The position numbers were made by a program, and so were the translations under genes. Under the pieces are notes generated by a model. That model was not told where the DNA came from. It saw only the letters and a program-made list of their open reading frames with translations, and ran no database searches. Below are positions 5,031 to 50,270 of a DNA stretch of 64,000 nt, one piece after another. Origin of the DNA: Rhizophagus irregularis. Lineage: Eukaryota. The DNA is taken from assembly GCF_026210795.1 (NCBI RefSeq), contig NC_089429.1:6944001-7008000 (forward strand), in the 5' to 3' direction. Numbering within the stretch: the stretch's first letter is position 1; each line of letters begins with the position of its first letter.

Positions 5031-6891
5031 ACGATAGAGCAAATTCTCAGCTTTCAAATGAATGTAAAATGATGACGTTAGCATATCTCCAGGAATAATA
5101 ATGCACGATTTTGTCACCTGCATAAAGTCCGATCTGAAAATTTTATTTCTTACCAAAAAATGCTTTCATAAGAGAATCCCAAATTCTTTTACTTTATTTA
5201 AAAGATTTTATTTGCCATTTAAGGATTTTAGTAGAATAAATCTAATAAAATAATTTTAAAAGATAAAAAACAAATATATAATTAGTTATTTTGAAAAAAA
5301 AAAAAAGAATATCTTATTATTCATTTTACAACTATTTTACATCATAATTATTTTTTATTTGCATGTATTTTTTACAAAGAAAAAATAATAAATTAAAGCT
5401 AAAAATTATGAAAAAATATGTCTTATCTATGTATATAAAATATTAAGTTTTTTCTTTTACTTACCACTTAAAAATAACTGCTATATTTGCTTATAAACTT
5501 TTTTGCCATATTTAATAAAAGTGAATAGAAAAAGGATGGAAAAGTGATGGGCAGTGATGGGGAAAAAGAAGTGGTTATTACCGTTATTTTTGAATATTGA
5601 TTAAAAAATTTTTTTTTATTTTTTATTAAATCTGAGTTACGTAAATATGTAACACATTTAATTTAGATTTGTGTAATGTTAATCTTATTAAAATATTAAA
5701 TTTTTATAAAAATCTTAATTTAGACTAATTCCAAAAATCGGCACATATGTTTCACATCCAGGTGGTATAAAAATTTTCAGAAAAATGATCACGTGTCTGA
5801 GTTTCTTCGGAATAAAACTAGAAAAATTTATTTTTAGAACAGTTCTTTAACATTACATAGCGTGTACCTAATTGTTGCAAAGTTATTTATCGCTGGGTGG
5901 TTATGGTGCATTGATGTTGATATCCATCAGCACACATTTCAGACGACATGCTCGTTATTGATAATCGCATAAAAAAATTCCATACCGTACCACTTACTGT
6001 ACCATACTCGTAACTTGTATACAGCTGATAAAATTAGTAGCGTACCGTACCATGCTGGCTCTATAACAATTATTGTTATTATTATTAACGTTCTTTTTTT
6101 TATTTTTTATTATTTTGCGTGTAATTTTTTTTATATAGTCTAATAGGGAAGAGAATAACGAATAAGACGAGAGTTAGAGCAAACAAACCTTAATTTTGTC
6201 AATAATATTGTCCTTACTTATAAATTTTATATGATCAATATCAGATATCAAATGTACTTTTATAATTATTATTAATCTGATTGTATTGATTTACACTAGC
6301 GAATAAATTTAATCAATATATTATACGCAACATCGGGCATCTTGACGCTGACGATGTCAGTAATTCAATGGTACTGAACTTAAAAAAATATACAGTATAC
6401 AAATATCAAACCGCATCCGTCGTAACCGACAAGAAATAGTGAAAGTTTAAAATTTTTTTATAAAGCAACTGTTTAGTAATTGACTTAAAAAAAGGTGATC
6501 TTAAGAAGAAACTGCACGTTATGCGGTGTAATCTACGTCTGGTTAAGAAATTGTATATTTGGCATTTATAATAAGTCTATGATTTCAAAATTTCTTACGT
6601 CGAGTACAATTAGTGGGTTGTTCGATCGTTTTAATAGTATATGATGCCTAGCCTATATGGCGTTATTGAAATGTTGGATCATATTGTTATTACAAAATCA
6701 TTTTCATTTCTATACAATTCATATACTTGATATGAAAAGGATTTTAAAAGGTTTTCATCATATGATGTATGGAAAATTGGCGATTGTTTGATGTAAATAA
6801 ATTTCTTTTATTCTTTGATATGTATAAATGAAAATTTGGATAATTAAAAAAATTCTAAGGTTGTTTTGTGCAACTTTTTATGATATACTGA

Positions 6892-8071
6892 TGTAAACGG
6901 TTGAATATCAAGTGCGAAAAGATGATAAAATTTAATCACCAAATGTAATTGCCAAATATTAAGAACGAACAAACTAATTATGAATTGGCGTAGATGGATA
7001 AATAATTAGCCGAAAAGGATAAACATTTAAGAAGAGCAATGATCTACATGATGTAATATTTATCAGATGATTAACAAAAAACCAATAGAATAATTAGAAT
7101 CGATCAATTGCGGCTTAGCAATCTTTAACAATAAGAACAATTAGAAAGAATAATTATAAGCCACAAAAGGTAGATCATATAAAATGGAGGGATAGTGGAC
7201 TAAAGGAACACGCATAACAAAAATACATACATTCATTCTCATGTTTTATTATTTCTTGCGAACATTTGTCTTTCTTTCTTGAAAAATCTTCATTTAATAT
7301 TTCTTTTATTTCAAAGATTTCTAATTCTTTCGAAAAGTATATCGTTTTACAAATAAGTTTTTATTCACAAAATTTACAATATATCTTAAATTTTACTTCC
7401 ATAAATAATAATATAAAAAGATAGTATAAAGATGGAACATAAAAGATAACATATTGGAAAGAACATATATAAAAAGATAGCATATTAGAAAGATAGTTCA
7501 AAGATAATATGTAAAAAGAACATAAAAGATAGTATATAAATAGAATAGAAAGTAGCATAAGATTTGTATAAATAGAGAGCGGAATTCAAAGTAATTCCAC
7601 AGTTCTCATCCACAGAACTCAATAAAAATATAAGTTTCATTTAATTATTTGTTAGTGAAGTTTAATATTAATTAAAGGTAATAAGTTCGCCCTAAACTTT
7701 AATTAATGTTTGCTTAATTAATTTTAATTGAATAAAATGAAAATTTTAAGATGAATTAAATATACATTTTTGGAAAGTAATAATTCGTAGCGAGAGCTAT
7801 CGAAGTTTGAAATTAAAGGTAAAAAGTGGATATAATTTGGGAAAATTTAGAGAAGTTAAATTTTATTTTATATCGTTCGACATTTTATATTACTAACGCT
7901 ATTTATATCGTGAACCAAGAATGTTGTTGTATGTTGTTTGATTATATCGTTGATTATTTGTTTGTTCGTTTAATTGTTCGTTCATGCGATTATTCGTTCG
8001 TTCGACCATGAGAATGCCCGTTCGATGTGGCAACTCTGTAAATTGATGACAGAGGGAATTGGGGGATCTCA
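6892..8071 (+). repeat. 5' LTR
   Basis: Starts TGTAAACGG and ends GGGGGATCTCA; both end segments match 17578-18661. Confidence 0.92.
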
Positions 8072-8073: not shown

Positions 8074-8086
8074 TGGTGCATGCTCC
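8074..8086 (+). promoter_or_regulatory. Primer binding site (cognate tRNA not determined)
   Basis: TGGTGCATGCTCC begins 2 nt after the LTR end; TGG is complementary to tRNA CCA. Confidence 0.65.
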
Positions 8087-9228
8087 AAGAAAGAAAATGA
8101 TCATCATCACATGATTATTAAGAATATGAAGATTTAATTTCGTTAGTAAGTCACTGATAGGTATTATTAATCAATATTTTATTTTTAGAATTTATTTTTA
8201 GATTTCAGGTTTTAACGAGTTCAAAAGGAACCAATAAATCAACAAGGATTTAATTGAGTTAAAAACTTGAAAGGTGAAAGATTGAAGTTTGAAGTCGTGC
8301 AAGTAATCATTTAATCGATAGAAAGCACGAGAATATTTCTTTTGGAAATAAAGTACCTGAGAAATTTCGTAAGGAGACGTGGAAGTGAAAGATGAATTTT
8401 GGAATAAAGATTAATAATGGGAGAACACCAATGCATTATCTGGGGTTCATCTGTGTCGTATGGGTTACGTCTGAGTTTGAATTTTGGATAAATGCTCGAG
8501 ATTGGAAAATTTTTATTCTTCGATATTAAGGATTATAACGTATGGGTTACGTCAAATCTGGATACCCAGCTCAATAATGCGCAAATTGCTTTGGGGACGG
8601 GGAATGAAAATTGTAAAGACACCTACTATCAAGAAACATTGAAAGAATAAAATGGGACAAACCTGTAAACTATCATGCTTTTACCCAATGGGAAAAAGAT
8701 AGAGATAAGCCCAGTATAGGTCCACCAACTTGAGAAAAGATAAGTTAGTTTAGACGAGTTTTATGGATAGCAGATGACTTTTGAAACTGGATTTCAAAAG
8801 GTTAGATTCACCCGTTAAAAGACAAGTCGACTAACGAAAGAAGAAAAGACAGATACGTTGTATTGTTACAGGTCCTAGGCTACATTTCAGATGAGGGTTC
8901 CTGGTGTAGTGTGCTAGGTCACGTTCTCATTACAATGTTCTGTTAAAAGAAGATAAAATAGAAGGATATTTACACATTAACGAGCTGTATAATGAATATT
9001 ACGTGCAGTATTTAATAATAGAGTAAAGTCCAAAAAGAGGATATGAATAAAAACGTTGAAGAAACATTTTATGTATTTGAAAAGAAGAACATTTATTTGA
9101 AAAGAAGGACATTTTGTGTGCTATAAATTAATTTATATAATATAGAATATATAATAAGAAGGATTTATGTGGACGATAAGAAAGATTGAAAATTCACAAA
9201 CTTTAAAAGTTATGAAAATTTTGGAGTT

Positions 9229-9380: not shown

Positions 9381-9668
9381 TGGCGCAGTAAAAACCTCCG
9401 CAGTCTGAGGAGATCGTGGACTTAGGATAATTTTTGAAATTTTGAGGCGCAGTAAAAATTAATAGTAAAATATGGCGTAGCAAATATATAAAACTGAAAG
9501 ATGGAATCTAAAGATTGAAAGAAGTAATCTATTTAAAGATAAAAGAATGTTTAGAAGATCAAAAATAGAAACGAATAAACGATAAGAGTGAAATGTATAT
9601 ATATAGAGAGATAGGAATCCGATTGAGATTCTGGATGGATATTCATAGCAACTTAACTAAAGCATACA

Positions 9669-12600
9669 ATGGAATGGTACCATCAATGGGAAAGTGAATA
9701 TAGAACACATAAAGAGGAACACGAATTAGGAACGGAAGAATTGGACGAATGTTTAAATTGTGAATTATGTCATCCAATAGTAAATGAACCAATAGTATTC
9801 AAGAAATTTTGGGATGCATTATTTAAATTTAAAGATGCAATAATAATATATAACAATGTAACAATTAATGGAGTATTAGATTTATTAAGTATAAATAATT
9901 CAGAAAGAGAAGATACAATACATAAAGGAAAATGTAGGAATATAATGGATAGAATAACGGAATCGATAAGGTATAGGATACAACCAAAAATGAAAGAAAA
10001 AGGATTACGAACAATTATATTAGTAATTGTAAGAGACTGTATTGAAGGAGATTTAGAGAATGAAGTATTTGATAGATTAATTGGAAACCCTGAACTAGTG
10101 GAACACAAATATATTTTAGAAGATTGGGATGTTGAAAGAAGGTTTGAGAAATTTTGGCAATGGTACAAAATCATATCGAAAGAAGTTGAACCATTACGAG
10201 TAAAGATGGGAGCAATAAAGACATTCAGGGAATTACTATATGAAGAAGAAGGAATAGCTATGAATGAGGAGAAAGTAAAAGAATTAATGTCCAATATGGA
10301 ATATGGGAACATAAACATAGAGAATGTTCACGAATATCACAGGAATATGGTACAAAAGATAATAAGAATATTTATAGATACTAGGGGCTTTACAAAAGAA
10401 CCAGAAGATTCAGAAAGTGAAGATAGCTTAGAAAGTTACGAAATGAAGAAGAATTTTAACATGAGTTTATATCTTAGATTTGAAAGATTCAGGTACTGGT
10501 GGAATGACAAATATGAAGGTAAACGAATACATACATATCATGAAAATGATTCATTAGAATGGTTCGAAAAGATGTTATCTGAGGGAGAGAATTTGCAAGA
10601 AGATACTGTAAGGAAGCTGACGGATAGTATGACATTTAAGGATAGCGAAGATATGTATGAAAAAGATCCTATTATATTGAGAATAGATGATGGAGTAATA
10701 GAATGGATTGTAACAGATTTAAAAGAAGCGATGGAAAGAACGCAAAAATTTAAGTTAGTGGAGATAGAGCAAGAAGAAGGTGATGAAATATATGATTCTG
10801 AGGAAGAAATAGAAATAATAGTAGAAGATAAAATGTGGAAGTTAGGTGAAATAAGAATAGGATTAAGACAACTAATAGTAAACCCAAAAGAAAAGCTTAT
10901 CAGGGAAATAATGAAATTTGGAATAAAAGAAAAGATAGAAACAGGAATACTGTTAACGTGTGATTTTATAAGATATTATATTTTTCTGAAAGGGAGATTT
11001 GATAAGTCTGAAGAAATAAAGGAATGGATGGATTCGAGTACGATAATATGTAATAGATGCAGTAAACAGAAATTAGATTATATGATATCAAAAGAAAATG
11101 GCAGATGTGAAGAGTGTAATCAGGAAATACGGGAAGATGAACAAGATGAGTTAATAGAATTAAAAAACAACTTAGAAAAGCTAGGATACGAAATAGATGT
11201 GTCAGAAATTCAAAGAATAAAGAATTTTGGAGTTAATAATCGAATAATAGTGACAGAAGAATTCATAGAAAGGTATATGAAAATAATAGAATTAGAAGAT
11301 AGAGAGTTAAGAAAAGAGGTGCACAGATGGTTAAATGAGAATACAACCTGGTGCGAAAGATGCGAAATAAGATGGATGAATGATATGTTTAGATTAGGAG
11401 GAACTGTATGCAAAGATTGTGAGGAAGAAGATATCGATAAAATTGATGATCGGGTAAAAAGATTTCAGAAGATTTTTGAAGATATTGGAACAATAATAAT
11501 TGAAGAAGAATTGTTAAGATTAACTAGTATGGGATATACAGATGGAGAAATTTTAGATAAAGAATTCATTGGAATCTTTCAAGAAAATAAAAATGAGTCA
11601 GAGAAAGAATTGAAGAAAAAGTTAGATAAGTTGTTGAAAGAACAAGCAGGAATAATAGATAGTGAAGAAAGTGGTGAAAAGAGTGATAATGAAGAATCAG
11701 AAGATAATACAGATGATTCAAAAAAAACTGGAGAAATATTAAACCCAGATGAAATATGGGATGAAAATATTGAAAATTTTAACGAAGATGAGTTTGAAGA
11801 TAAAATTGAAAATGTTATAAATAGAGGAGATATCGACTTAAGTCAAAACTCAGATACGAATAGTTTATTAAATATTAAAAATTCTGACAACGAAAGTGAA
11901 TTATCTGATTACAATTTACAAGATTTATTTCAAGAGGATATATTAAATATGGCAACTGAGAATCAAATAAAAAGATTGATAGAGAATGCTTTAGGTTATC
12001 CAGTTAATACTTTGAATGCAGCAGTAGGAGCGGGAGCAAGTTTGATAGAAAGGATTGAAAATGCAGGGAATGAAGCAGGGGGAGTAATTAGTGTACCACT
12101 CTTTTATGGAAAAGAAGATGAAGACGTTAACGATTGGGTTAGACAATTTGAGGTAGCATTTACAGCAGTCGGAAAAGCAGCTGGAGCTAATGGTACAAGA
12201 CAAGCAGCATACGCAGCAGCACATTTAAGAGGGCAGCAGCACAATGGTATAATGAAATGAAAGAAGTAAATGTAGGTCACTTAGTGAATTGGGCAGATGT
12301 AGATAATGATAATGATTTAAAACATAGAATAAAGAGGAGATTTACCAGAGAGGATGTTAGAAGAAAGAAAATGCTAGAATTAAGAAAACTCGACAGGAAG
12401 TAAATGAAAGTGTTGAAGAATACACAAGAAGATTTAGACAAATATTAAGAATAGCAACTAGGGGACATGCCTTAGCAGATGAATATCAAGTAGATTTTTA
12501 TATCGAAGGATTAGAACCAACAATAGGGTATCAAGTTAGAAGACAGAATCCAGGGAACTTAAATGGGGCAATAGAAATAGCAGTAAGAGAAGAAGGTGTA

Positions 12601-13584
12601 AAGGACGAATTTATTAGGAAAGCAATAGGTACACCAGTTAGTACGAGTATAGACATCAAAAGAGATAATAATAGACAAAATATGTTCGCAAAACCATTGA
12701 ATGAAAACTATGAGGACGAATTAGTTAAAGCGTTTGAAGAAAAGGCAAGAATTAGTAAATTAGAAGGACTGGTATCAAATATAGAGAGAAGATTAAATAA
12801 TGATAATAGGAATAGGTATTGACCAGATGTAGGAAGGAGATTAAATAATGGTAATAGGAATGGTTATCAATCAAATCAGAATAGGGTACCAACATGTTTC
12901 AGATGTAATAAAGTGGGGCATTATAAGAATAATTGTCCTGAAGGAAGGAATGCAAGAGTAAATATGATGGACGAATATGATGACCAAGAGGAATATGATT
13001 ATGATGGATATGAATATGAGAAACCACAATACGATGGAGTATATTATACACAAGGATATTAATATGATTATGAAGATAGGGAATTAAATTATTATAATGA
13101 ATTGTACGCAAAAGATAACGCAATAAAAACAAGAAGACAAACAAGAAGGACGAATCCAACAGTGGGATATAAAAATAATAATGAAGAAGGAAATTTACAA
13201 GAAGAATTAAGAGAAGCGGGAAATAGAATGGATGATAGAAAAATACCAAGTGGTACAATGGCACCAAGTTATACACCTGAACGAACTGAACAGAATTGGG
13301 ATAAACCGATAGGACCAAGAAAAATGAAATGGAGTAATAAAAGGCAAGATTTTTACGACCCAACAGAAGGACTAAGAAAATGGAGAGAAGCAGGGGGACC
13401 AACAAAACCTAGGGTATATGGACCGAGATTAACTGACGAAATACCACCTTACGACATTGTGGGAGACGTGAAAAATTGTAGAGTGAATATAACATATGGA
13501 CAATTAATAAATGAGAATACTAAGTATTATAAGCAATTGAGGGAAGGAACATATAGACCAAGAAGTATGAACAAGAAAAATTGA
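9669..13584 (+). pseudogene. gag: ORF1/Gag: ~760-aa acidic, Cys-motif extension fused to Gag (capsid region from ~11949, CCHC knuckle 12895-12936); frameshifted
   Basis: FYGKEDEDVNDWVRQFE and RQEVNESVEEYTRRF capsid motifs, CFRCNKVGHYKNNC knuckle; frameshifts near 12230, 12390 and 13060; in-frame TGA near 12820. Confidence 0.85.
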
Positions 13585-14097
13585 CTACACTCGGTGGGAA
13601 CTATGAAAAATGAAGAAAAAAGAACTACAGCAATGAGAACAGAATTAGAAGTTGAAGATCAATTAGTAAATGTAATAATAGATACTGGAGCAGCAGTAAG
13701 TGTGATAACAGATAAATTAAGAAGAAGATTGAATATACCTATATTTGGAAAAAGTAAATTTAGATGTACAATAGCAAATGGGCAAAAGATAGCGGCGTTA
13801 GGAAAGGCAAATATAACTTTGAGGTACAAAGATGAATTAGAGATACTGAAAGAAGTTGAAGTGATCAATTCAGAAGAAGAGGATCTAATTTTGGGAAATG
13901 ACATATGGAAGTTGTATAATGCAAAAATAAATTTTGAAGATCATACCTTAAGAATAGAAGAACAGGGAGAAATAATAACGATTCCAGTAGGATATGAAAG
14001 AGAAGTAGCATATGAAAGTGAGGAGAGTGAGGACGATGAAGAATATGAAAGTAACGATGAAGGAGAGGTATTCAAAATGCACCAGAATTTTAAATAG
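13585..14097 (+). CDS. Retropepsin-like aspartic protease
   Basis: IIDTGAAVSVI active site and LILGND motif; in frame with gag across TGA-CTA. Confidence 0.9.
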   Translation, partial: LHSVGTMKNEEKRTTAMRTELEVEDQLVNVIIDTGAAVSVITDKLRRRLNIPIFGKSKFRCTIANGQKIAALGKANITLRYKDELEILKEVEVINSEEEDLILGNDIWKLYNAKINFEDHTLRIEEQGEIITIPVGYEREVAYESEESEDDEEYESNDEGEVFKMHQNFK

Positions 14098-16166
14098 AGA
14101 GTCTTGGCTCTGAAGAGAGAGAGACGGAAAAGATGCTCGAACTAAGTGAAAAATTTATGCAAAAACTAAGTATAGGAGAAGTAGAAGAACCAATTTGGGA
14201 AAATATGGTAAAATTACTATTAGAATACCAAGATATTTTAGAATACGACGAGGAAATAGAAGGAATAACAAAAGCAGCGCAACATGAGATAAAGATAAAA
14301 GAAGGGGTAGAACCAATAAAGCAAAGAAGATACAAAGAAACAGATGAAAAGGCAAAATTTATAAGCGAAGAAGTGGATAAATTGTTAAAACAGGGAAGGA
14401 TAAGGAAATCAAAAAGTCCATGGAGTTCACCTGTTACATTAGCAGGAAAGAAAACAGGAAAATATAGGTTCTGTATTGATTACAGAAAGTTAAACAAGAT
14501 AACTATAATGGATAGTTTTCCTTTGCCAAGAATGGATGAATTGTTAGACAAATACAGAAAAGCAAAATGGTTTTCAAGTATAGATCTAGCGGCAGGATTT
14601 AATCAGGTAGAAATGAAAGAAGAAGACAAAGAAAAAACAGCATTTGTATGTTCGAAAGGATTGTTTGAATATAATGTAATGCCATTCGGTTTAACGAATG
14701 CACCAGCAACATTTCAAAGATTAATGGACGAAATATTGGAAGAATACATAAACGATTTTGTAGTAGTATATATCAATGATATTATGATATATTCAGAAAA
14801 TTTGAAAGACCATATGGAACATGTGGAAAAAGTATTAAAGAAGTTACAGGAGAATAATTTAATAATAAAATTGAAGAAATGTAGATTTTTGGAAAGAAAC
14901 ATAGAATTTTTGAAACATATTGTAGGAAATGATGGATTAAGGCCAGACGATAAAAAGATAGAAAAGATAAAAGAAATGAAGGCACCAACCACAGTAAAAG
15001 AAGTAAGATCATTTTTAGGACTTTGTTCATATTACAGAAAATTTGTGAAGAATTTTTCAAAGATAGCAAGACCAATAAGTGATTTGAGAAAGAAGGGAAT
15101 ACCTTTCATTTGGGGAAGAGAACAACAAGAAGCGTTTGAAAAATTGAAAGAAAAGTTAATACAATATCCAATATTACGACATCCAGATTGGAAGAAAGAA
15201 TTTTTATTAATAACAGATGCATCAGGAAAAGGATTAGGTGCAGTATTAAGTCAAAAAGATGAAAAAGGAAAAGAAGTAGTAATAGCATACGCAAGTAGAA
15301 GTTTATTACCAGCAGAAGAAAATTATCCGATAACAGAATTGGAATGTTTAGGAATAGTTTGGGGAATTCAACATTTTCATAAATATTTAATCGATAGAAA
15401 ATTTAAAGTAATAACAGATCACAGTGCATTAAAGGGATTAATGAATGCAAAGATACCGAAAGGAAAAAGAGCGAGATGGGTAATGGAATTACAGCAATAT
15501 AATTTTGAAGTAATACATAGATCAGGAAAAGAAAACACGAATGCTGACGCATTGAGTAGGTTATTAAAGATAGCAGAGGATCAACCAGAAATAGTAATAA
15601 TCGATGGAGTAGATGGATTAGGAAAAACAAGTATAGTACAAAATTTAATTAAAGAATGGGAAAAGCAAGGATTAAAAGTAAGATTCAATACTTATAAAAG
15701 AAGAAGAAAAGATAAAGATAAATTTTATGAATCAAAGATGGAGACAGAATGGAAATTCAGAAAAGAAGTAGTAGAACAAATAAATAGAAGAATGTTAGAA
15801 TATGATGAAAATACAGATATAATAATTTTAGACAAATCACCATATTGTGAATATTATTATCAAAAGACGAAAAGTTTTGACAGAGGATTAATTACTCCAC
15901 ATGGAAATCATGAGATGGAAAAAGAAATATTCAGATTGAAAGAAATAATAGATAAATCAATAGTGATATTTTTAGAAAAAGATGGCGATGTATGTTGGAA
16001 GAATTACATCGGAAGAGAAACAAAGAAAATGGAAAAATCATCATATCCAACATTAAAAAAGGATGAATATTTGGACATGGTTAAAATGTTTGAAGAAAAT
16101 CAGAGTGTGTACAAAGATACCAAAAGATACAGTCGAGTAAAAGTTAAAAACGACAATAGTAGCTAG
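14094..16166 (+). pseudogene. pol: Pol: reverse transcriptase + RNase H + C-terminal P-loop NMP/dNMP-kinase-like domain
   Basis: RFCIDYRKLN, MPFGLTNAPATFQR, YIND (mutated YxDD), TDASG...NADALSR, then IIDGVDGLGKT and IILDKSPYCEYYYQ. Confidence 0.92.
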
Positions 16167-16274
16167 AGAAAAGTATTTAAAGAAGTGGAGAAATGGAGAA
16201 GAGCACAGGACTAAAAATATAGAACACATAACGAAAATAACAAATTCAGAAGTAGAATCAATTAAGGAAATATT

Positions 16275-17429
16275 ATGGAAGAAAATAATTATAAGAGAAT
16301 AATAGACAATATCGAAAAAGAGAATAAGTATGAATTGAAAGAGGGAATTTTATATAGAGTGAAAGGACAAAACAAATTTAGAGTAATCAGGGATTATGAA
16401 TACGAAGGATTGATGTACATGATGCATGATAATGAATTATCAGGGCATTTTGGGATAGAAGCGACATTAGATAGAATAAAAGAAAATTATTGGTGGAAAA
16501 ATATGAAGGAAGATGTAGAAGAATATGTAAAGACATGTTGGAATTGTCAGATGAGAGGAAAACCAAGAGGAAAGAACGAATTAACGTCAATAAAGATAAA
16601 TGAACCATTCGAGATGATTGGGATAGATATAGTTGGACCATTAAAAAAGACAGAAAAGGGAAATAAGTACATTGTAGTAGCAATGGATTATTTTACAAAA
16701 TGGCCCGAGGCCGCACCACTAAAAGAAGCTACGGCGAAAGAGGTAGTAGAATTTATTTGGAGGGACATAATTTGTAGACATGGGTGTCCAAAGAAAATAA
16801 TTAGCGATAGAGGGACTCACTTTAACAATAAAATGATGGAAGAATTAGTAGAAAAATGTGGGATAAATCATAGATTAAGTACACCATATAGGCCACAAAC
16901 AAATGGTTTGGTCGAAAGATTCAATAAAACTTTATGCGAGGGATTAGCCAAATTAGGAGAAGAAAATTGGGATAAGCATATACCATCCGTATTATTTGCA
17001 TATAGAACGAAGAAGCAGTCGTCAACAAAAATTAAACCTTTTTATGCAACATATGGAAGAAGAGCAAAACTACCATTAGACAAAGATGAAAATAAGATAA
17101 CATTAGCTGACAGAATAAAAATATTAATTGAGAAGCTACCGGTAATAAGAAGAAAAATAAAAGAAAATGTGAAAGAAGTTCAAGAGAAACAAAAACAACA
17201 ACACGACAAAAGAGGAATTAGAAAACCTAAATTTGAAATAGGAGAAAAAGTATTATTATATGAAGCATGGAGAGAGAAACAATGGTCTGGAAAATTACAG
17301 AACAAATGGAAAGGACCATATTTAATTCATGAAGAATTTGGAAATGGAGCTTATAAACTCAAAGAATTGGATGGAAGAATACTAAAAACACCACAAAATG
17401 GAGAATGGCTAAAGAAATTTTATGATTGA
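16275..17429 (+). CDS. Integrase (HHCC, DDE core, GPY/F), separate ORF, no chromodomain
   Basis: HDNELSGHFG...CWNC, GIDIVG, SDRGTHF, GLVERFN, WKGPY. Confidence 0.93.
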   Translation: MEENNYKRIIDNIEKENKYELKEGILYRVKGQNKFRVIRDYEYEGLMYMMHDNELSGHFGIEATLDRIKENYWWKNMKEDVEEYVKTCWNCQMRGKPRGKNELTSIKINEPFEMIGIDIVGPLKKTEKGNKYIVVAMDYFTKWPEAAPLKEATAKEVVEFIWRDIICRHGCPKKIISDRGTHFNNKMMEELVEKCGINHRLSTPYRPQTNGLVERFNKTLCEGLAKLGEENWDKHIPSVLFAYRTKKQSSTKIKPFYATYGRRAKLPLDKDENKITLADRIKILIEKLPVIRRKIKENVKEVQEKQKQQHDKRGIRKPKFEIGEKVLLYEAWREKQWSGKLQNKWKGPYLIHEEFGNGAYKLKELDGRILKTPQNGEWLKKFYD

Positions 17430-17563: not shown

Positions 17564-17577
17564 GAAGGAGGGGATAA
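17564..17577 (+). promoter_or_regulatory. Polypurine tract
   Basis: GAAGGAGGGGATAA immediately before the 3' LTR TG. Confidence 0.85.
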
Positions 17578-18661
17578 TGTAAACGGTCAAATATCAAGCA
17601 TGAAAATATGATAAAATTCAACCACCAAATGTAATTACTAAATATTAAGAATGAACAAATTAATTATGAATTGGCGTAGATGGATAAATAATTAGCCGAA
17701 AAGGATAAACATTTAGGAAGAGTAATGATCTACATGATGTAATATTTGTTGAATGATTGACAAAGAACCAATAGGATAATTAGAGTCGATCAATTGCGGC
17801 TTAGCAATCTTTAACAATAAGAACAATTAGAAAGAATAATTATAAGCCACAAAAGATAGATTATAAGTAAAACACATAAAGCGAATTAAGAGAACATATA
17901 AAATAATGTCAGAAAGATTAAAGAACATAAAATAACATAAAAGATAATATAAAAAGATAATACAAAGATATTATAAAAGATAATATAAAAAGATAATACA
18001 AAGATATTATAAAAGATAATATATAAAGATAGCATATTAAAAGATAGCGTATTTAAAATATAGATAGCATATTAGAAAGATAGTTCAAAGATAATATGTA
18101 AAAAGAACGTAAAAGATAGTATATAGATAGAATAGGAAGTAGCATAAAATTTGTATAAATAGAGAGCAGAATTCAAAGTAATTCCACAGTTCTCATCCAC
18201 AGAACTCAATAAAAATATAAGTTTCATTTAATTATTTGTTAGTAAAGTTTAATATTAATTAAAGGTAATAGGTTCGCCCTAAACTTTGATTAATGTTTGC
18301 TTAATTAATTTTAATTGAATAAAATGAAAATTTAAGATGAATTAAATATACACTTTTGAAAAGTAATAAATCGTAGCGAGAGCTATCGAAGTTTGAAATT
18401 AAAGGTAAAAAGTGGATATAATTTGGGGAAAATTTAGAGAAGTTAATTTTTATTTTATATCGCTTAATGTTTTATATTACTAACGCTATTTATGTTATGA
18501 ACCAAGAATGTTGTTGTATGTTGTTCGTTGATTATGTTGTTTGATAATTATGCGGTTGAATATTTGTTCGTTCGTTCGTTTATTCGTTCGTTTGACCATG
18601 GGAATGCCCGTTCGATGTGGCAACTCTGTAAATTGATGACAGAGGGAATCGGGGGACCTCA
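17578..18661 (+). repeat. 3' LTR
   Basis: TGTAAACGG...GGGGGACCTCA; contains internal AAAGATAATAT-type tandem repeats. Confidence 0.92.
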
Positions 18662-19594
18662 ACGCCAAACTCAATTTTTTTAGAGGTAAATAATTTTTTT
18701 AAAAAAATCTTTCAGCAACACCTTAACATTTCTTTTTTTATTTTTAGGGATATCAGATATCTTGTTTTTTAAAAAGATTTCTTTTGGAGTATCTAACACT
18801 CTTTTTCTTTTATTTTTGAAAACACTGGACACATTAAAGGTAAATGGGTGTTTTTTTTGAAAAAAAAATTATTATTGAAATTTCGTTAACGTTTCTTTTT
18901 AATTTTTAGGAATACTGATTTTTCTTGAAGCTCAATGTTGTTTTTTTAAAATAAAACCAGGTTCAAAAAATTTTTTTTTTTATTTTATGAATACGACCTA
19001 GAAGGTAAATGGACAATTCTTTTAAAAAAAACTCCTATCTATTATTAAAAAATTTCTTTGAAAACTTTACTAGCCTTTCTAGAAATCTTGGACTTTCTTG
19101 AACTCTCTTGGTAAAAGAATTTGCGCCTATTTGATTTTAATTAGCAGTTTTATAATAATTTACAGAATCAGCCAATTTATTGACCAATTTGTTAAATATA
19201 TGATCGGCAAATTATTTACTGATTTGTCAACAATGTAACCTAATTAACCAAAAATGGCTCATATAAACAAACCTTTAAAATAAAAAAATAGCAATGAAAA
19301 AAAAATTTTTTGTTTATCTAGACGAAAAAACAACTTATTACGAAATTTTTTTTTTACAAAAAAGTAACCTATTTAACTAAAAATGGCATATATAAACAAA
19401 CCATTTTTTTTGTTTAAAATAAACAAACTAGTAAAATTTATGACGAAAAAATAAACAACTAGTGAAACTTATGACGAAATTTTGTTTTTTACAAAAAAGT
19501 ATGATAAATTTTTTTTTTATTTAAAAAGTAAATAAATAATTAGCGAAAACTAAACATCCTTTTTCTTCTATCTATTTTCATTTTTTATATAAAA

Positions 19595-22111
19595 ATGTCA
19601 GAAGTTTGGGAATATTTCCAAAAAATTAGAAATGACAATAATGTCATTATATCATTAAACTGCCAATTATGTGAAACAGAATATGGAGTATTAACTTCTA
19701 CAACAACACTTCGTCGACACTTAAGAAGTATTCATGCTTCTACGTATGTATATGGACCAAACCTTTTATCACAAAACTCTTCTTATACTTCTGCTGAACA
19801 AAAACATATAACAACAAAGCTTACACAATGGGTTACTGTTGATTTACAACCTTTTACTGTTGTTGAACAAGAACAGTTTCAGGAGTTAATTTATACTTTA
19901 GATCCACGTTACATTTTACCATGCAGGCAAACTTTGAAAGAAGAAGTAAATTCATTATTTTTACAAAGAAGAGCAAATGTCAAATCCGAAATTGATAATC
20001 TTACATCAAAAATTTCTTTAACAACTGATATTTGGTCTTCTACATATAATAATACAGCCTTTTTAGGAATTACAATGCATTACATTACCAATAACTGGAC
20101 AATGAAAAAATGTTTATTGGATTTTATTTCCATAGAGGAATCCCATTCAGCAGCACTAATTTTAACTAAACTAACTGATGTTTTACAAGAATTTAATATA
20201 AGTAATAGAATCATATCTCTTACAACTGACAATGGTAGCAACATGTTAGCATGTGGAAGAGAACTTGCTAATGAATTAGAGGCAGGATTTTTTAATTTTA
20301 CATTTTCTCATAATAGATGTGTAGCACATATAATCAATTTGGCAGTTAAGGCTGGAATGAAATATTTGGACTCTTCTATTGTCAAATTGCGAAAATTTGT
20401 TAATAAAATAAAAAATTCTCAATTATTAATTGATGATCTTAAAAGTATTTGTAAAATTAAAAATGTAAAATTTCTAATGCCAATACAAGATGTTGACACA
20501 AGGTGGAATGCAACTTACCAAATGATTGAAAGACAAATTTCTACACGAGATGTAATAGAAATCTTAGTGAATTCTCATAACAATATATTAAAAGATTTAT
20601 ATCCAACAGATATTGAATGGAGAAAAATATTGGTATATTTTCAAATTTTTTTTAATTTTTAATTTAAATTAAATTTTTTTATTGAATTAATTTGAAAATT
20701 AATTAAATTAATTTTTTTATATACTATTAGGAATTAGTTGATGTATTAAAACCTATGTATAAAGCTACTATTTTACTTTCATCAACATCAACACCAACGC
20801 AAGGAGATTTGCGTCTAGCTTTTTTGGGAATGCTAGCTTCTTTGCGACGTCAGCGACAATCAGATCTAGCAAATGCCATATATGACAAACTTTGGACCTA
20901 TTGGAACAGACATTTATCTAAATCATTAGCTATTTCTGCAATTCTTGATCCACGTTACAAACTTACAACTTTTCATAATCAAGAAGAACGCAAAAATTAT
21001 ATTAATCATTTACAAACTTTATTTTCTTCGTACATATCAAATTCCCAAATTACATCAAATACAACAGATGTACACTACCCTCCCAAAAGTATCCGGTCAA
21101 CCAATAAAGATCATATTTTATTAATAATAATTAATATTTAGTTGGCCATCCATGCATGCTTCAATTTGGCGTGGCATGCTCTCAATTAAATTTTAATGTA
21201 AGTTTTGGATGGAATTCTTTCTCACTTTTTTTTTAGCCATTAATCCAGTATTAAAATTTTTGTATCGAACAATTATGTCTGTAACAGTACTTTTTGGAAA
21301 TTTTAGGATATGACTGATTGCTTCATAAGTTTTTATCCTTTCCAAAGGCTAATAATTTTCTCACGCTCACTCAATTCACGAGTTTTTCACATTTTAAAAG
21401 TAGCCGAATGGCACAGTAACAAAAAAAGCAAAGATCAGCATTGGCAAAATTGAGGTGTTATTATTTGTTTTATTGCCAAATCTGGTACAAGCATCGTAAT
21501 ACAATAAAAATACATTCATTTTAATCGTTAGAACCAGGGGAATTGTTTTTTTTTTAAAAAATAATACTTTATATATTCAATCTTGAGAAAATCAAGTTGA
21601 GCTTGGCCGGATACTTTTGGGAAGGTAGTGTAACTTCGCAAGATTCAAGAACTTATTTTTAAATATGATTAATAATAGTCAAAATTATGCAGAAAATTCG
21701 GAATATGATGAAATTAATAATTATTTGAGTACACCATGTGATATTAATGCAGATCCGTTAGTGTGGTGGAATGTTCACCAAAAAAATTATCCTACACTTT
21801 CACTAATAGCAAAGGATTATTTAATTATACAAGCCACAAGTGTATCATCAGAGCAAGCCTTTTCAGTGGCAGGTAATACTATTACACAAACAAGAAATAG
21901 GCTGGATCCTGAAACAGCACGTGCAACTTTATGTCTTAAAAGTTGGATTGAGAATAAGTTGGGAATTAATATAACTAATGAAGATGATAAAGAAACTAGT
22001 AGTAATAGTAGTGATAGTGATTATTGTGATAGTACTAGTATTATTAGCAGTGAAGACAGTGATAATGATGACAGTAATAGTGAAGATAGTGATAGTGAAA
22101 GTGAAAGTTAA
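19595..22111 (+). pseudogene. hAT (Ac-like) transposase with BED finger, one intron (20633-20730), interrupted by a Tc1 derivative
   Basis: VWEYF..CQLC..LRRHLRSIH BED finger; LTTDIWS, TTDNGSN, RCVAHIINL, TRWN; dimerisation domain PLVWW..YPTLSLIAKDYL..SEQAFS; the GT-AG intron preserves frame. Confidence 0.93.
21073..21630 (-). mobile_element. Internally deleted Tc1/mariner element
   Basis: ~28-bp TIRs (CACTACCCTCCCAAAAGTATCCGGTCAA), TA TSD; minus strand retains an HTH N-terminus (RELSEREKII..PKSTVTDII) and the C-terminus (ESMPRQIEAC..PTKY). Confidence 0.92.
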
Positions 22112-24559
22112 TGTTTTTTTATTTTAATTATTCATTAATTATGTTTTTACATAAAGGAATTTTCAAAAAAAACTTTCAATAAAGTCCAAATTCAATATTC
22201 CTAAAATAAAGAAAACTTTTAAAAAAATGTATATTTAAAAGAGTTCTAATGGTTTTGGTGTTAAAAAAGAATTTTAACAAATGTCATTTACTTCCAAGAA
22301 AAGAGTTCAGCATTCATAAAAATAATAAAGAAGTCTTTAAAGTTTCTAAATAATTTTTTTTAAAAAAAATTAATTGCATCCAATAAAATCAAAGAAATCA
22401 GATATTTCTAAAAATAAAAAACGTTAGACATTTCTAAAGAATTTTTTTAAAAAAAAATGTCATTACCTTTAAGAAATAGTCTAAGGTATCTGGTGTTCCT
22501 GAAATAAAAGAAAGAAATGTTAGAGACATTTCTAAAAGAATTTTTTATAAAAAAAAACGTCTAATTACATTGTATTTAGCGTTCCTAAAATAAAGAAATA
22601 TTGGAGATGTTTCTAAAGAAATTTTTTTAAAAAAAACGCCAATTTGCCTTTAAGAAAGTCCAAAGAGTTCAGCACCCCTAAAGTTTTTTTTTAAGAAAAA
22701 TGTTTCTAAACTAGTTAATTAAAATTAAAATAAAAAATTATCAAAAAAAAAATTTGGTACAAATTTTTTTTCATAGGACCGATCGGTCCTGGTCCACAGT
22801 CCGATCCTGAACTGCGGACTGATGAAGACCGGATCAGGACTGACCAGACCGGACCATTAACATCCTTAGGCACAGGAGACCCTAAATCGCAATTTATTTT
22901 TTTGATGTCAAAAAAGCATAAGTATATGCATTATGATTATGAGTATAAATTGTCATACTCATATTCTAATTATAAAGCATAATGCTTTAAGTATTATTAT
23001 AAAATGCAACTCAAATTTTTATTTGAGCTTTTCTAAAATTGATCAAAAAACATATTAATTCTTGATGATCACCTACAACACTATCCAAATTAAGCGAAAA
23101 AATGGATAAATTTGGAAATGATCTGATCACCTTCTACGCTAAAATAAACTAAAAAATCAGACTACCAATTTTTTTTTAATAAAAATGAACTGATTTTTAT
23201 TAAAAAAATCAGTATATTGTTATATTTTTTTTTTAATTAAAAAAGCTGATTTTTATTAAAAAAATCAGTATATTTTTTGATTTTTGATGATCAACACAAA
23301 AGTAAGAAATGTAAATTTCTTCATAATCTATCAAGTCAATAATCATTTTTAGTAGCACAGAAAAATTCAGTGCAAAAGTTTCTATAATGATTGTTTAAAT
23401 CTTAGTGTCTTAAGTCTTAAATCTTATGTCTTAAGTCTTATGTCTTAATTGCCGATCCACGAATGAATCGGACCTAGTGATCGGCAAAATCAAATCTCCA
23501 CTTCCAAAAAAAGTAAAGTCGGTCAATTTTTAGCCAAACCAATTAAATTTTTTTTTTAAAAAAACTTAGAGATTAAATCTATTTTGTAAAAATATAAATT
23601 TAAGTATTTCAAAACTCAAAATTTTGCGAATTGCTTTTAAATATCATCAATTAGCGAAATTTTAGTAAAAATTATTTATCATTTTTTTTTCTAATAAAAA
23701 TACTAGCAAGAAGTCTCAAAATTCACACATATATACTTTGGACATATATTAATAGAATATTTAAAAAAAAATGATATAATAAATGTAAAAATATTTCCTA
23801 CTTTAAGGTTAACTAACAATAATCCATTTTCCCATTTTTAATGCTTATATGAAACTTTTATAAATCAATCTTTAGGAATTTAAAAATGGTAATTTTATCT
23901 TAAAATATAAGTTCTGAACATATTTAAAGCATTTATTTTCAAATTATTAAGTGAAAAAATTTTTCAGTTTTGTGTCGATGGTTACACAAATTACGAATTG
24001 AAGAAATTTAAAGTTTATTGGTGAAAGTTTGACTTTTTTAAGAGCTATTTTTGATACTTTAATAAAATAAAGCAAATGTCAAAGTTTTTTCATTAAAAAT
24101 TTCAATCTATTCGATTAAAAATTGGTGGATATTCCTATATTGGAAATGCAGATTTAAGGGGTGGTCCGATTGGTACATGGATTACTAATTAAGTCTTATA
24201 TACTAAGTACTAAATACTAAGTATATTAAAGATTAAAATGGACCTTTTTTTACCAAAAAGGAAATCTTTTTGAATTCAATGGCTAGATCAATAATAAATT
24301 AGGAAATGATTGACAATAGAAAATTTCTTAAAATTTGAAAAATTCTTCATTTTTGCAAAAAATGCTCAACAAATGATTATCTGAGTTAGTGTTCTGAACG
24401 GATCAGGTCAATTCGGGTGACCCGTCGGGTTGACCCGAAAATTTCGGGTCGGGTCATCAAATTTATGACCCGACCTCGGGTCGGGTCACAGTTTGACCTG
24501 ATTCGTTGACCCGTTTGACCCGACATAATATTTCTGGTCAGATGTGTCAAATATGTAAA

Positions 24560-25259
24560 AAAAAACGCCAAAACGTTTTTTTTTGTATTATTATTAAGAA
24601 AAAATGTTTTGGCGTTTTTTCATATAAAATTATTAAAAAAAATGCAGAAACGTTTTTTTTTATATTAATTATTATATAAAAAACGTTTCGGCATTTTTTC
24701 ATATAAAATTATTAGAAAAAAATGCCGAAACGTTTTTTTTGCATGATTATTAAGAAAAAATGTTTCGGCATTTTTTCATATAAAATTATTAGAAAAAAAA
24801 TGCCGAAACGTTTTTTTTTTGCATTATTATTAAGAAAAAACGTTTCGGCGTTTTTTCATATAAAATTTAAAAAAAACGCCAAAACGTTTTTTTTTATATT
24901 ACTTATTAAGAAAAAACGTTTCGGCGTTTTTTCATGTAAATTATATTTAAAAAAAATGCCGAAACCGTTTTTTTTTTGTATTAGTTGTTAAGAAAAAACA
25001 TTTCGGCATTTTTTCATATAAAATTATTAGAAAAAAACGCGAAACGTTTTTTTTTGTATTAGTTGTTAAGAAAAAACGTTTCAGCATTTTTTCATATAAA
25101 ATTATTAAAAAAAAATGCCGAAACGTTTTTTTTTATATTAATTATTATAGAAAAAACGTTTCGGCGTTTTTTCATATAAAATTATTAGAAAAAAACGCGA
25201 AACGTTTTTTTTTTGCATGATTATTAAGAAAAAACGTTTTGGCGTTTTTTCATATAAAA
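24560..25259. repeat. Alternating-orientation AAACGTTTCGGCG repeat array (resumes at 28637-28980)
   Basis: Repeated ~80-bp units, each holding an inverted pair of the same motif. Confidence 0.9.
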
Positions 25260-25599
25260 CTAGTTGTAGCCTGTCGCGCTGCGCCGGGGAATGGAGGGTG
25301 CATAATGATTAAAGCAAGAGAGTAATATAGCAATATATTTGTAGCATACCCGATTTGCAATGCAGATTTTTATTGTTATCATATCATTACAATTGTATTA
25401 GTATAAGGCAAAAAAATGTAAATAATTTTATGTCTCTATGACCAATAGAAGGCGAGTTATTCCATATTTTTTCTTCAGAATCGCAGATTCTAAATTATTG
25501 ATAAAATACATATGAACTTATCACCGCCTTTTAATAGTCAAATTTTATGGTTCACTGGTGGATCACGAATTAATTCTTTCCAGAAGTCCATTTTGCCTC

Positions 25600-26650
25600 C
25601 AGGTGGTGTTCCTATAAAACTATCAATAAAATGTTAGGAAATGTTCTTAAACAAAATTAGCAAAAGAAAACCTTTGTCTCCAAGAGTCTCTGAAAGTCGT
25701 TCCTATAAAAAAAATTATTAAAAGAACATTAGGAACATTCTTGAACAAAATTAACAAAAGAAATAAAAGAAAACTTACTTTTTATCTCCAAGAGTCTCCA
25801 GGGGGCATTCCTATAAAAAAAATTATTGAAAGAACGTTAGAAACATTCTTAAACAGAATTAAGAAAAGAGACGAAAAAGAAAACTTACCTTTCGTCTAGG
25901 GTGTTTTTACAAAAAAAATTATCGAAAGAACATTAGGAAATGTTCTTAAACAAAATTAGCAAAAGAAAATGAAATCCTTTTGTCTCCAAGAGTCTCTGGG
26001 AGGCGTTCCTATAAAAAAATTATTCAAAGAATGTTAGGGAACATTCTTAAATGAAATTAACAAAAGAAAACATAAAAAACTTACCTTTCATCTCCAAGAG
26101 TCACCAGGAGGCGTTCTATAAAAAAAATTATTGGAAGAATGTTAGGAAATGTTCTTAAACGACATTAGCAAAAGAAACAAAAAAGAAACATTACCTTTCA
26201 TCTCCAGAGTCACCAGGAGGCGTTTCTACAAAAAAATTATTGAAAGAATGTTAGGAAACGTTCTTAAATGAAATTAACAAAAGAAAACAAAAAAGAAACA
26301 TTACCTTTCATCTCCAAGAGTCACCAGGAGGTGTTCCTATAAAAAAAATTATTGAAGAACGTTAGGAAATGTTCTTAAATGACATTAACAAAAGAAACAA
26401 AAAAGAAACATTACCTTCATCTCCAGAGTCGCCAGGAGGCGTTCCTACAAAAAAATTATTGAAAGAACGTTAGGAAACGTTCTTAAATGACATTAAAAGA
26501 AAACAAAAAAGAAACATTACCTTTCATCTCCAAGAGTCACCAGGAGGTGTTCCTATAAAAAAAATTACTGAAAGAACGTTAGGAACGTTCTTGAACGAAA
26601 TGAATGGGAAAAAATGAAAAAAACACCTTTTATTTTTAGGAGTCCATTTT
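25600..26650 (-). repeat. ~120-bp tandem micro-exon/intron units (~8 copies)
   Basis: TAG|GAACACCTCCTGGTGACTCTTGGAGATGAAAG|GTAAT...CCTAAC...TTTTGTAG repeated. Confidence 0.85.
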
Positions 26651-26845
26651 GTCTTCAGGGTATTCCTACAAAAAAAGGGTAATGAAAAAAAAACATTATA
26701 AAATGTTCCTAAATGAAGTAAAAATAAAAATAAAAAATAAAAAATAGATTGATTATCTAAATACACAACCAATAAAATTTTAAAATCACATCACGTGATA
26801 GGGTGCATTTGAACGCCAGGTGCGTTTAAATTTTAAACCCTTTTA

Positions 26846-28501
26846 TCTATTATTTATATCTACATATCTATATAACAAAAAAGTCATATAAAATTGTATA
26901 ATGATATAATGTGTATTTATCTGTATTATTGATTTATTATCTGTTATTTTTTAGTTAAATTTTTGGATCGGTAAATCAATATCATGAATACCGATCAATC
27001 TGATCATTTATATCATCATTTTATCATTACAAATGCTGATCATTTTATATAATAAATCATACTATGAACACCGATCATTTCTGTTGACTGAAATTATCAT
27101 AGCTTTATTACCAAATTACCAAAATTTAGATATTTTAAAAAAAGCTATTATAAAATTAAAATTATCTATAATATTATAATTTCGTATGATTTAACATAAA
27201 ATATATTTTTGATCCCTGTTTCATATGATACATCTACATAACATATTATAAATTAATTTTTTCATTATATAGCACATATTAAAGTAAGTTAAATAAAAAA
27301 ATTCTATAGTATTTAGATTACCCTGTATAAATAATTTGAATTGTGTAATGGGTGGTTTGTCTGCTCCCGAAATATTTGATCTATATTATTATGGTTAAAA
27401 TCCATTAATCAGTAAATTATAGCATTAATACCAAATTGCTAATCATTGCTATTTTATTGCTGAAATTAAAAAAAAAATTAATTAGCCCGTTTATTGATTA
27501 CAAATACTTATTATTATAACTATGTACTCTTTTCATGATTAGATTGAAGGTCCTGAAAGTGTGATCCAAAGTATTCGTGTCGGATATTCACTAATTAGAT
27601 TCCAATTTTTTTAAAATAAAATGCAATTAAATGTTTTTTTGATTTTTTTTCTTATAACAATGGGACACAATTATTTTTTTTAAAAATTATATTTATTTCG
27701 TCAATAACAATATTTTTTTCATAATAACAATATTTTTTTCGTCAATAACAATAGGATACAATGTAATTTTTTTTGATATTAATAATGATAACTTTTAATA
27801 TTATTCATTCAATATTAAAATTTTTCGATAACAATAAATTCCACAAATACATTATTTTTATCAAAATGTTCTTTGATAAATCATAAATCATCAACATATA
27901 TTTTATTTTTGTGATAATATATATAAAACATCAATTTTCCATCAACATAATATGTAATATTTTGTTAATACTAAATTAATATGGCTTCACTTCAGGAAAC
28001 ATTTGAAGATAAAATGCCTGAACAATGTAAAAAAAGATTAAATAATGAAAGTCAAACCTGTACAGACATGCATAAATCTCATAGATATCAGTGAATTAAA
28101 ATTCTCATATTACATCAAGAGAACTGTCAGACAAAAAACATTGTATATAATGAAATTTTTCAAAATATTTAACACTCATTTATTGTAAATATAATTTAAA
28201 TTACTTTAATGCACTATAATTATATCATTCTAATATATAGCTACATTATTGTAAATATAATTCATATCATTTCTAAATATAATTTATATTATTCTAATAC
28301 TGTAAATATCATTTTACTAATTGTTAATATGATTTAATATATCTTATTTTAATATTTTTTTGTTAACTAATTATTAACTATATATCAAGTTTTAATTAAT
28401 AAACAAAAAACTGTAACCATTTTTAATTTACATTATAATACCAAATTGTTCTATTTAAACCAACTCATTAGGTCCAGTGCAAAGCAACAGGTAACTGCTA
28501 G
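26846..28501 (+). mobile_element. Second, oppositely oriented Helitron derivative nested inside the first (5' end approximate)
   Basis: TCTA-type starts at 26846-26867; 3' CCAGTGCAAAGCAACAGG hairpin + CTAG|T; short remnant ORF MASLQETFEDKMPEQCKKRL near 27981. Confidence 0.55.
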
Positions 28502-30970: not shown

Positions 30971-31021
30971 TATTCAGATAAACTTGCAGTATGCAGTAGA
31001 ATGTATACAAGGGCATGTAAT

Positions 31022-50158: not shown

Positions 50159-50270
50159 TTATAATCTTCCGAATTTCATTCTACACTCAAACATCAAATC
50201 ATTATTGCCGTTTTCAAAATTACTGACAAATTTTGATTTGCGAGGTTTGATATATGATTTTTCGTATAAC

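Follow-up and report, generated by a model that had tools for sequence, protein, structure and literature searches.

Nucleotide kinases are typically found in phages and large DNA viruses, and among retroelements the known nucleotide-metabolism passenger is dUTPase. In non-primate lentiviruses, the dUTPase is located between RNase H and integrase, is cut from one Gag-Pol precursor and is critical only in non-dividing cells, according to the available sections of PMC4531489. Excerpts of further papers report dUTPase in Gypsy elements of fungi (basidiomycete and truffle, PMC2864245), of rotifers (PMC5408684) and of planarians (PMC6431247). Other enzymes carried by Gypsy elements, again as given in the accessible parts of the sources, are an AlkB ORF in orchids (PMC9289625) and a rotifer ORF3 with GDSL and DEDDy (PMC5408684), and extra domains rarely become fixed in LTR elements according to the available text of PMC9289625. 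Our search of the literature on retrotransposons together with thymidylate or deoxynucleoside kinase, on AMF transposons and on fungal TE domains, to which Repbase, GyDB and TE libraries did not belong, yielded no kinase-bearing retroelement in the text portions available, and no such kinase appears in the accessible text of PMC11075540, PMC8647823, PMC11952901, PMC6416283, PMC6431247, PMC2864245, PMC5408684, PMC4531489 and PMC9289625.

In this study, we analysed a window of 64,000 nucleotides from Rhizophagus irregularis (NC_089429.1, positions 6,944,001 to 7,008,000), for which a sequence-only reading had proposed a Gypsy Pol with a kinase-like domain in frame after RNase H. The element found here represents a kinase-bearing Ty3/Gypsy variant which is real, conserved and apparently undescribed.

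Results

The window contains a full-length but decayed Ty3/Gypsy-type LTR retrotransposon on the + strand. LTRs (TG...CA), primer-binding site and polypurine tract are all present, as expected for Ty3/Gypsy structure, and the Pfam matches follow the Ty3/Gypsy domain order gag-PR-RT-RH-IN (protease, reverse transcriptase, RNase H, integrase). The features are:

6892..8071, + strand: 5′ LTR (TG...CA), from alignment to the 3′ LTR
8074..8089, + strand: primer-binding-site-like stretch with TGG start, 2 nt past the 5′ LTR, from sequence
9657..12260, + strand: long (~770 aa) N-terminal extension of Gag, running into the Gag start, from the ORF
12361..13584, + strand: remaining Gag with capsid-like region, CCHC knuckle and C-terminal part (Ty3_capsid, Retrotrans_gag, zf-CCHC)
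13585..14097, + strand: aspartic protease ORF (gag-asp_proteas, E 4e-9)
14448..14912, + strand: reverse transcriptase (RVT_1, E 6e-41)
15186..15560, + strand: RNase H with NADALSR at its end (RT_RNaseH, E 4e-37)
15582..16214, + strand: P-loop kinase domain of predicted TMPK/dNK fold (ORF, Pfam, PHROG, predicted fold)
16216..16302, + strand: remnant of a small coiled-coil ORF with a deletion, start and end matching the 81-aa ORF of metagenome locus L001 by eye
16275..17429, + strand: integrase, encoded apart from the kinase frame and opening with an ATG of its own (H2C2, rve, GPY/F-like end)
17564..17577, + strand: polypurine tract, from sequence
17578..18661, + strand: 3′ LTR (TG...CA), from LTR alignment

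This copy is dead. The catalytic motif of its reverse transcriptase reads YIND where siblings have YIDD or YLDD, and the enzyme is inactive because of this change from YIDD; Gag is broken, its final part closing at TGA 13582-13584, and the LTRs have diverged, with 64 differences in 880 aligned columns, transitions predominating. No matching target-site duplication was seen at the LTR flanks. The protease continues in the frame of Gag after TGA-CTA, and an identical junction is found in locus L002. The Gag N-terminal extension showed no match in Pfam or PHROG and belongs to no known family there, but is homologous to the N-terminus of the R. clarus protein P0040 (E 1e-31). No chromodomain match was obtained for the integrase.

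RVT_1, RT_RNaseH and a further ~200 residues past NADALSR share one open frame (14094-16166), so that the kinase-like extension after RNase H could be confirmed; the linker between RNase H and kinase comprises 9 aa. The frame closes at TAG 16164-16166, and the next in-frame stop, TAA 16212-16214, is the end that the sequence-only reading had given as 16214. At the TAG position, Trp is present in 92/92 relatives scored there, and in the closest siblings the protein extends 11-15 residues beyond it, in agreement with the TAA; the TAG is decay in this copy. The motifs of the domain are:

15606..15629, + strand: Walker A GVDGLGKT (Lys in 84/88, Ser/Thr in 85/88 relatives covering the site)
15612-15614, + strand: TMPK-type P-loop Asp (Asp in 79/85 relatives covering the site)
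15687..15713, + strand: family-specific basic motif N-x-F/Y-K-R-R-R-x-D after strand 2, at the location of the dNK catalytic Glu
15831..15863, + strand: DKSPYCEYYYQ, by profile alignment to TMPK-like proteins, with the spacing of TMPK DR(Y)xxSxxAYQ
16002..16028, + strand: predicted LID start N-Y-x-x-R-E-x-K (N141, R145 and E146 in 90/93 relatives)

Together with the end of NADALSR at 15560 and the IVIFLE strand at 15960-15977, GVDGLGKT and DKSPYCEYYYQ lie at the sites assigned to them beforehand. The P-loop Asp aligns to D12 of a TMPK-like alignment (A5), in which D88 and R89 are invariant. The Arg of this DR motif binds the dTMP phosphate in TMPKs, whereas the DR(Y/F) motif is absent here: D84 and K85 are each found in 94/99 relatives, with Arg at position 85 in none. 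From the two explanations offered for DK in the sequence-only reading, a family-specific motif could consequently be retained, while G>A decay had to be rejected. The catalytic Glu of deoxynucleoside kinases stands after strand 2; this position aligns to Thr/Lys in an alignment based on a single dNK-like sequence, while its part could be taken by E56 or E90, which are invariant as well. The N-x-F-KRRR-x-D motif is nearly invariant among relatives, the EP motif of TMPKs is absent from the retroelement kinase family, and the LID Arg corresponds in alignment to the lid Arg of dNK type. With its altered active-site motifs, the domain forms a new branch of the TMPK/dNK superfamily.

In profile searches, the domain resembles kinases of the thymidylate kinase (TMPK) and deoxynucleoside kinase (dNK) group and lies outside the curated limits of both families. 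The Pfam families dNK (E 1.9e-5, 25 bits) and Thymidylate_kin (E 6e-4, 19.9 bits), which the sequence-only reading had named for a check, were found, but below their curated cut-offs of 27, and TIGR00041 gave 19.5 bits at a cut-off of 83. The PHROG thymidylate-kinase profile matched with E 1.9e-14 and is matched by 31/34 family members. At E <0.01, Thymidylate_kin matches 28/34 members and dNK 9/34. A weak PPK2 match is seen in 4/34; the Thymidylate_kin cut-off is exceeded (27.6) just by a fragment of a NUDIX-fused relative described below. Since the Pfam and PHROG matches are accompanied by 105 homologues, the kinase match is not due to chance. PDB sequence searches with the window domain gave matches at P-loops only, and ESM Atlas features reached 0.95-0.96 to Thymidylate_kin, dNK and AAA_28 clusters.

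The AF2 model of the window domain (pLDDT 89.3, pTM 0.84), which omits the last helix, predicts a TMPK/dNK-superfamily kinase fold, in line with the P-loop NMP-kinase fold proposed earlier and with the general P-loop, LID and NMP layout given for kinases of this type in the available part of PMC10653934. The superfamily core of sheet, P-loop, NMP-binding helices and lid is present in the model, with Z 12-15 to dNKs and TMPKs over 163-192 residues. Best Foldseek matches are dNKs and TMPKs, dNKs first, and VIA-align gave Z 15.0 for human dGK (rmsd 3.1, 183 aligned), 14.9 for Dm-dNK, 14.4 for Giardia dAK and 12.9 for S. aureus TMPK; viral structural matches are likewise dNKs and TMPKs, at 10-20% identity. 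PPK2 (Z 8.4-10.0) and T4 polynucleotide kinase (Z 8.7) were rejected as identities against the 15.0 of dGK. By hhalign, six TMPK-like proteins were matched with 98.8% over 126 columns and one dNK-like sequence with 95.1%, an unequal comparison of six sequences with one. Profiles thus tend towards TMPK and folds of the window domain towards dNK; taken together, folds and profiles leave TMPK and dNK unseparated.

Two database searches returned 105 relatives, 45 of them longer and 60 of similar length. Their named sources are Rhizophagus irregularis, R. clarus, R. diaphanus and Glomus cerebriforme, the remainder being metagenomes, and the closest proteins (94-97% identical) are from R. irregularis. 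When 1.84 billion cluster representatives were searched with a profile, 76 matches were obtained, 45 of which had E <1e-10. Contigs from four runs, guessed to be RNA, add presence only, with no GT..AG joint. Some relatives carry automatic annotations as thymidylate kinase, without recognition of the element.

RNase H lies directly upstream of the kinase in 10 of 23 metagenome loci, with the kinase in frame in 5 and as a separate ORF in the other 5, and integrase follows downstream in 14/23, the remaining loci ending early or being broken. Stand-alone kinase ORFs encode small natural proteins of about 250-265 aa. A third arrangement, in which the kinase sits on the integrase N-terminus, is represented by an R. 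irregularis cluster of 47 members (P0034) and is known from protein gene models, not DNA. In locus L008, a coiled-coil ORF takes the place of RNase H upstream of the kinase. The kinase keeps its slot between RNase H and integrase while fusion partners vary, and accessory ORFs, including an F-box ORF, share this slot.

The likeness to the lentiviral dUTPase slot, drawn in the sequence-only reading, holds for the position between RNase H and integrase, but does not extend to an internal location in a single Pol polyprotein: the kinase either forms the C-terminus of RT-RH, stands as an ORF by itself or forms the start of integrase. An open RT-RH-kinase-IN frame was found in 0/23 metagenome loci, and the kinase frame is closed by a stop before integrase both in the window and in 13/13 metagenome loci measured. 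Since integrase is a separate ORF, the RT-RH protein of the window branch ends with the kinase, and the canonical arrangement with integrase inside the Pol polyprotein is absent from the window element. The integrase ATG is placed -11 to +3 bases from the kinase stop in 8/13 loci (TAATG, ATGA, TAAATG), and in the other 5 the gap spans 135-344 bases. This gap is occupied by small ORFs starting beside the kinase stop in L007 and L016, the range tested contained no small ORF in L009 or L010, and in L020 the kinase is broken. In the window, the gap measures 60 bases, with the deleted relic of the L001 ORF.

The median pairwise dN/dS (NG86) of the kinase is 0.185, with 0 pairs at or above 1, from 19 sequences with 120/171 pairs usable and 51 set aside as saturated; the corresponding medians are 0.163 for RNase H (34/36 pairs), 0.164 for integrase (14/15) and 0.138 for RT (2/3). 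A maximum-likelihood check of 5 kinase pairs gave 0.02-0.16 in four and 1.05 in one, the latter being probably a failed fit (dS 0.24 compared to 1.22 by NG86). The kinase is under purifying selection comparable to RNase H and integrase. Trees of RT-RH and kinase for 14 proteins are largely congruent, with P0013 as a clear exception (recombinant or chimeric model) and the weakly placed P0016 shifting. Among the fusion arrangements, the sole supported clade is the short-linker RH-fused branch which includes the window copy (99/97). The purine-rich codon style noted beforehand is borne out as well, with a purine fraction of 0.68 for the kinase, 0.63-0.68 for PR, RT, RH and IN and 0.52 for a nearby hAT gene. 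Because purifying selection, congruent trees and a composition matching pol coincide, we agree with the sequence-only reading on a long residence of the domain.

Outgroup branches are too long for placement of a donor in the tree. At limited sensitivity in each case, four queries against viral contigs and tblastn against phage records returned no relative, and one motif pattern gave 18 matches in prokaryote genomes, 0 of which were confirmed. A phage origin via phrog_761 was rejected, since this profile also matches 14/14 control genomes and phiKZ gp188 aligns at the P-loop only.

The closest relatives outside the retroelement set, known from proteins alone, are metagenome proteins of 345-391 aa with a NUDIX hydrolase and the same kinase on one chain (P0185, P0122, P0174 and P0201, with automatic JGI names only). 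They are ~30-35% identical to the retroelement kinases (E to 1e-36) and share their P-loop, KRR, FR, DK[ST]PY and lid motifs, but, unlike these, carry a full NUDIX domain, which looks intact (Pfam E 3e-11; fold Z 16.2 to MutT-type NUDIX). For the kinase half of the P0185 model (pLDDT 92.4), S. aureus TMPK comes first, with Z 15.6 compared to 13.9 for dGK. The NUDIX partner links the family to nucleotide handling. Atlas look-alikes of a NUDIX-kinase fusion fall into bacterial clusters, which we regard as a lead only. When the N-terminal extension of the retroelement kinases was compared to NUDIX-bearing proteins, 2/6 scored above nearly all shuffles (shuffle counts 1 and 12 of 300) and 4/6 failed; its interpretation as a NUDIX remnant is weakly supported at best. 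In the window branch, the extension is wholly lost.

Discussion

We propose that the domain may act as an ATP-dependent dNMP kinase which boosts the supply of DNA precursors for cDNA synthesis of the element, a reading to which we give an even chance. Catalysis would be expected from the intact Walker A, the D-K motif and the lid Arg, and phosphorylation of a dNMP over a nucleoside is suggested by the TMPK-type P-loop Asp and the TMPK-spaced ..YQ, as well as by invariant KRRR instead of Glu at the dNK catalytic-base position. Because the kinase is fused to RT-RH in the window branch and to integrase in another, it could be delivered to the particle, and the benefit would arise where dNTPs are low, in the cytoplasm or at certain life stages. 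As preferred substrate, dTMP is one candidate, though with less than even likelihood. Several points speak against the dNMP-kinase reading: scores stay below curated thresholds, the DR Arg is replaced by Lys, EP is absent, and by fold the window domain is matched best by nucleoside kinases and less well by TMPKs. Eukaryotes possess their own TMPK. A dNMP kinase yields diphosphates, so that the host NDP kinase would be needed, and fusion cannot account for entry into the particle where the kinase is its own ORF (5/10 RNase H loci). In yeast, raised dNTPs left Ty1 cDNA unraised and aided recombination, as stated in the available part of PMC3002893, which likewise counts against our proposal.

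The dNK matches, which take the top three places in VIA-align, the top place in Foldseek and the best place in Pfam, would be accounted for by a deoxynucleoside salvage kinase converting free nucleosides to dNMPs for the element. Many fungi are not known to possess deoxynucleoside salvage kinases, and on this premise the gain for an element in such hosts would be large; our literature search on fungal salvage kinases gave nothing usable. With Thr/Lys at the position of the dNK catalytic Glu, a P-loop showing the TMPK-type Asp and not GNIG/GQIG of dNKs, and TMPK as first match of the NUDIX-fused relative, we consider salvage quite unlikely. That the relatives at ~30-35% identity are NUDIX-kinase fusions could instead point to unusual substrates, such as nucleotides that are damaged, modified or connected with defence, in place of a bulk supply of dNTPs; the kinase would then be what is left of a NUDIX-plus-kinase system for pool cleaning or counter-defence. 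An acceptor site rebuilt with KRRR, D-K and FR..VV..IN.R, unmatched in the tested families, would fit this, as would the other accessory ORFs, including the F-box ORF, in the same slot. However, the NUDIX-fused forms, known as proteins, may lie outside retroelements, and the putative remnant is weakly backed and gone in the window branch, so that this reading, too, is unlikely.

The change from DR to DK and the missing catalytic Glu would also be compatible with a non-catalytic or regulatory binding domain, be it a dNTP sensor, an RNA- or DNA-binding domain or a nuclear-import module based on KRRR, attached to RT or integrase, and pseudo-enzymes of the dNK fold do exist, a complex I subunit matching at Z 12.6. 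Pseudo-kinases usually relax their catalytic residues, whereas >90% of the relatives here retain Lys and Ser/Thr in Walker A, Asp in the P-loop, D in the D-K motif and Arg in the lid, and the kinase also occurs as a free-standing ORF, which renders loss of catalysis improbable. The dead window copy, taken by itself, would agree with a recent capture or a neutrally drifting passenger in few copies. This is refuted by 105 relatives in four named species and metagenomes and by dN/dS ~0.19, with a composition equal to pol and largely congruent trees as further counter-arguments, and retains practically no likelihood.

Returning to the dNMP-kinase proposal, the element could exemplify a lineage of retrotransposons in mycorrhizal fungi with an operon-like pol, in which RT-RNase H, kinase, optional small ORFs and integrase follow each other with stop/start overlaps, and which brings its own deoxynucleotide kinase, descended from a NUDIX-kinase module. 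No other retroelement would be known to make DNA precursors instead of just cleaning them, and the D-K/KRRR acceptor chemistry would be new; we hold this combined view with somewhat less than even confidence. If true, a retroelement making DNA precursors would be a parallel to large DNA viruses. Selection on the kinase like that on RNase H and integrase across fungal species suggests that supply or quality of nucleotides limits retrotransposition, and in the multinucleate, spore-forming symbionts which serve as hosts, nucleotide limitation is directly testable. The stand-alone natural kinases are small and available for assays. Among the R. irregularis gene models labelled 'thymidylate kinase-like', 'hypothetical' or 'phosphodiesterase-like', many are pieces of this element.

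Compared to the described systems, the family shares its predicted fold with thymidylate kinases (PF02223, TIGR00041; S. aureus 4dwj, T. thermophilus 5x7j), at Z 12.9 for the window domain and 15.6 for the NUDIX-fused form, and resembles them in the P-loop D/E-G-x-D-G-x-GK, the D-x(8)-YQ spacing and the lid-region Arg. It differs from them in DK for DR, in N-x-F-KRRR for EP, in an identity of ~13-15%, in scores below the cut-offs and in its location within a retrotransposon. Deoxynucleoside kinases (PF01712; human dGK 2ocp, Drosophila dNK 1ot3, Giardia dAK 8puu) provide the best fold match (Z 14.4-15.0, rmsd ~3.1), and resemble the family in the helices which follow DK and in the lid Arg, but differ in the P-loop, which is of TMPK type here, and in the catalytic-base position, which lacks Glu here, at 12-17% identity.

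Among mobile elements, as far as the available texts on them go, dUTPase retroelements likewise carry an enzyme of nucleotide metabolism in pol, the lentiviral one in the same slot as the window kinase. The window element differs by a predicted P-loop kinase fold, adding phosphate, in place of the dUTPase fold, and the family differs from the lentiviral arrangement in that the enzyme ends RT-RH, stands alone or heads integrase, with integrase being separate. Gypsy elements with AlkB or with GDSL and DEDDy, according to the accessible parts of their descriptions, resemble the window family in a captured domain which became fixed in a lineage under selection, and differ in enzyme, position and hosts, their extra ORFs being located outside pol.

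Structure of the window copy and its surroundings

For the decayed Ty3/Gypsy element, comparison of positions 6887-6891 with 18662-18666 of the window revealed no matching target-site duplication. The middles of the two LTRs are dissimilar (about 7180-7450 in the 5' LTR, about 17860-17990 in the 3' LTR). Two insertions may have recombined to give this copy, or its 5' LTR may hold an insertion. Upstream of Gag, an acidic extension of about 770 aa containing Cys pairs is encoded at 9657-11950; it found no match in Pfam and PHROG searches and is conserved in the R. clarus protein P0040. Elsewhere the window carries a broken transposase gene and repeats, the AT-rich arrays being built from units of 50-190 bases, some of them palindromic.

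Other features of the window
19544-22111: broken hAT-type transposase with BED zinc finger
24549-29000, 25616-26639, 30760-31009, 33545-35862, 49122-50603: AT-rich tandem arrays
57178-57308: perfect 49-base inverted repeat with 33-base spacer
56139-57809 and 61769-63744: duplication, 95-96% identical, about 5.6-5.9 kb apart

Settings of the kinase in related loci

Among the related metagenome loci, small ORFs were observed at the kinase stop. In L013 (655-1089) and L014 (930-1128) an F-box ORF, matched in Pfam with an E of 2e-5 for L013, overlaps this stop and lies between kinase and integrase; it could recruit host ubiquitin ligases. A conserved ORF of 48-52 aa, belonging to no known family, begins at the kinase stop in L006, L007 and L016, as does an 81-aa coiled-coil ORF in L001 (1045-1291). 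One kinase clade (L008, 3-389; protein P0142) has a coiled-coil, Cys-rich ORF upstream in place of RNase H, while the integrase is still located downstream, and this clade possibly represents a different or non-autonomous element. In proteins P0012 and P0013, a kinase 88-89% identical to that of the window is attached to the RT-RH (reverse transcriptase and RNase H) of one family, a combination which might reflect a module swap or a chimeric gene model.

Junctions flanking the protease

Gag ends in TGA followed by CTA (13582-13587) and the protease continues in the same frame; L002 displays TGA-CTA at its Gag end (372-377) in identical context. Between protease and RT the frame differs, with TTTTAAATAG at the junction (14088-14097), which is conserved in L002 at about 881-890 and could constitute a second recoding site, a restart site or a splice site. 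The TGA-CTA between Gag and protease looks like a stop-codon readthrough signal of the UGA-CUA type.
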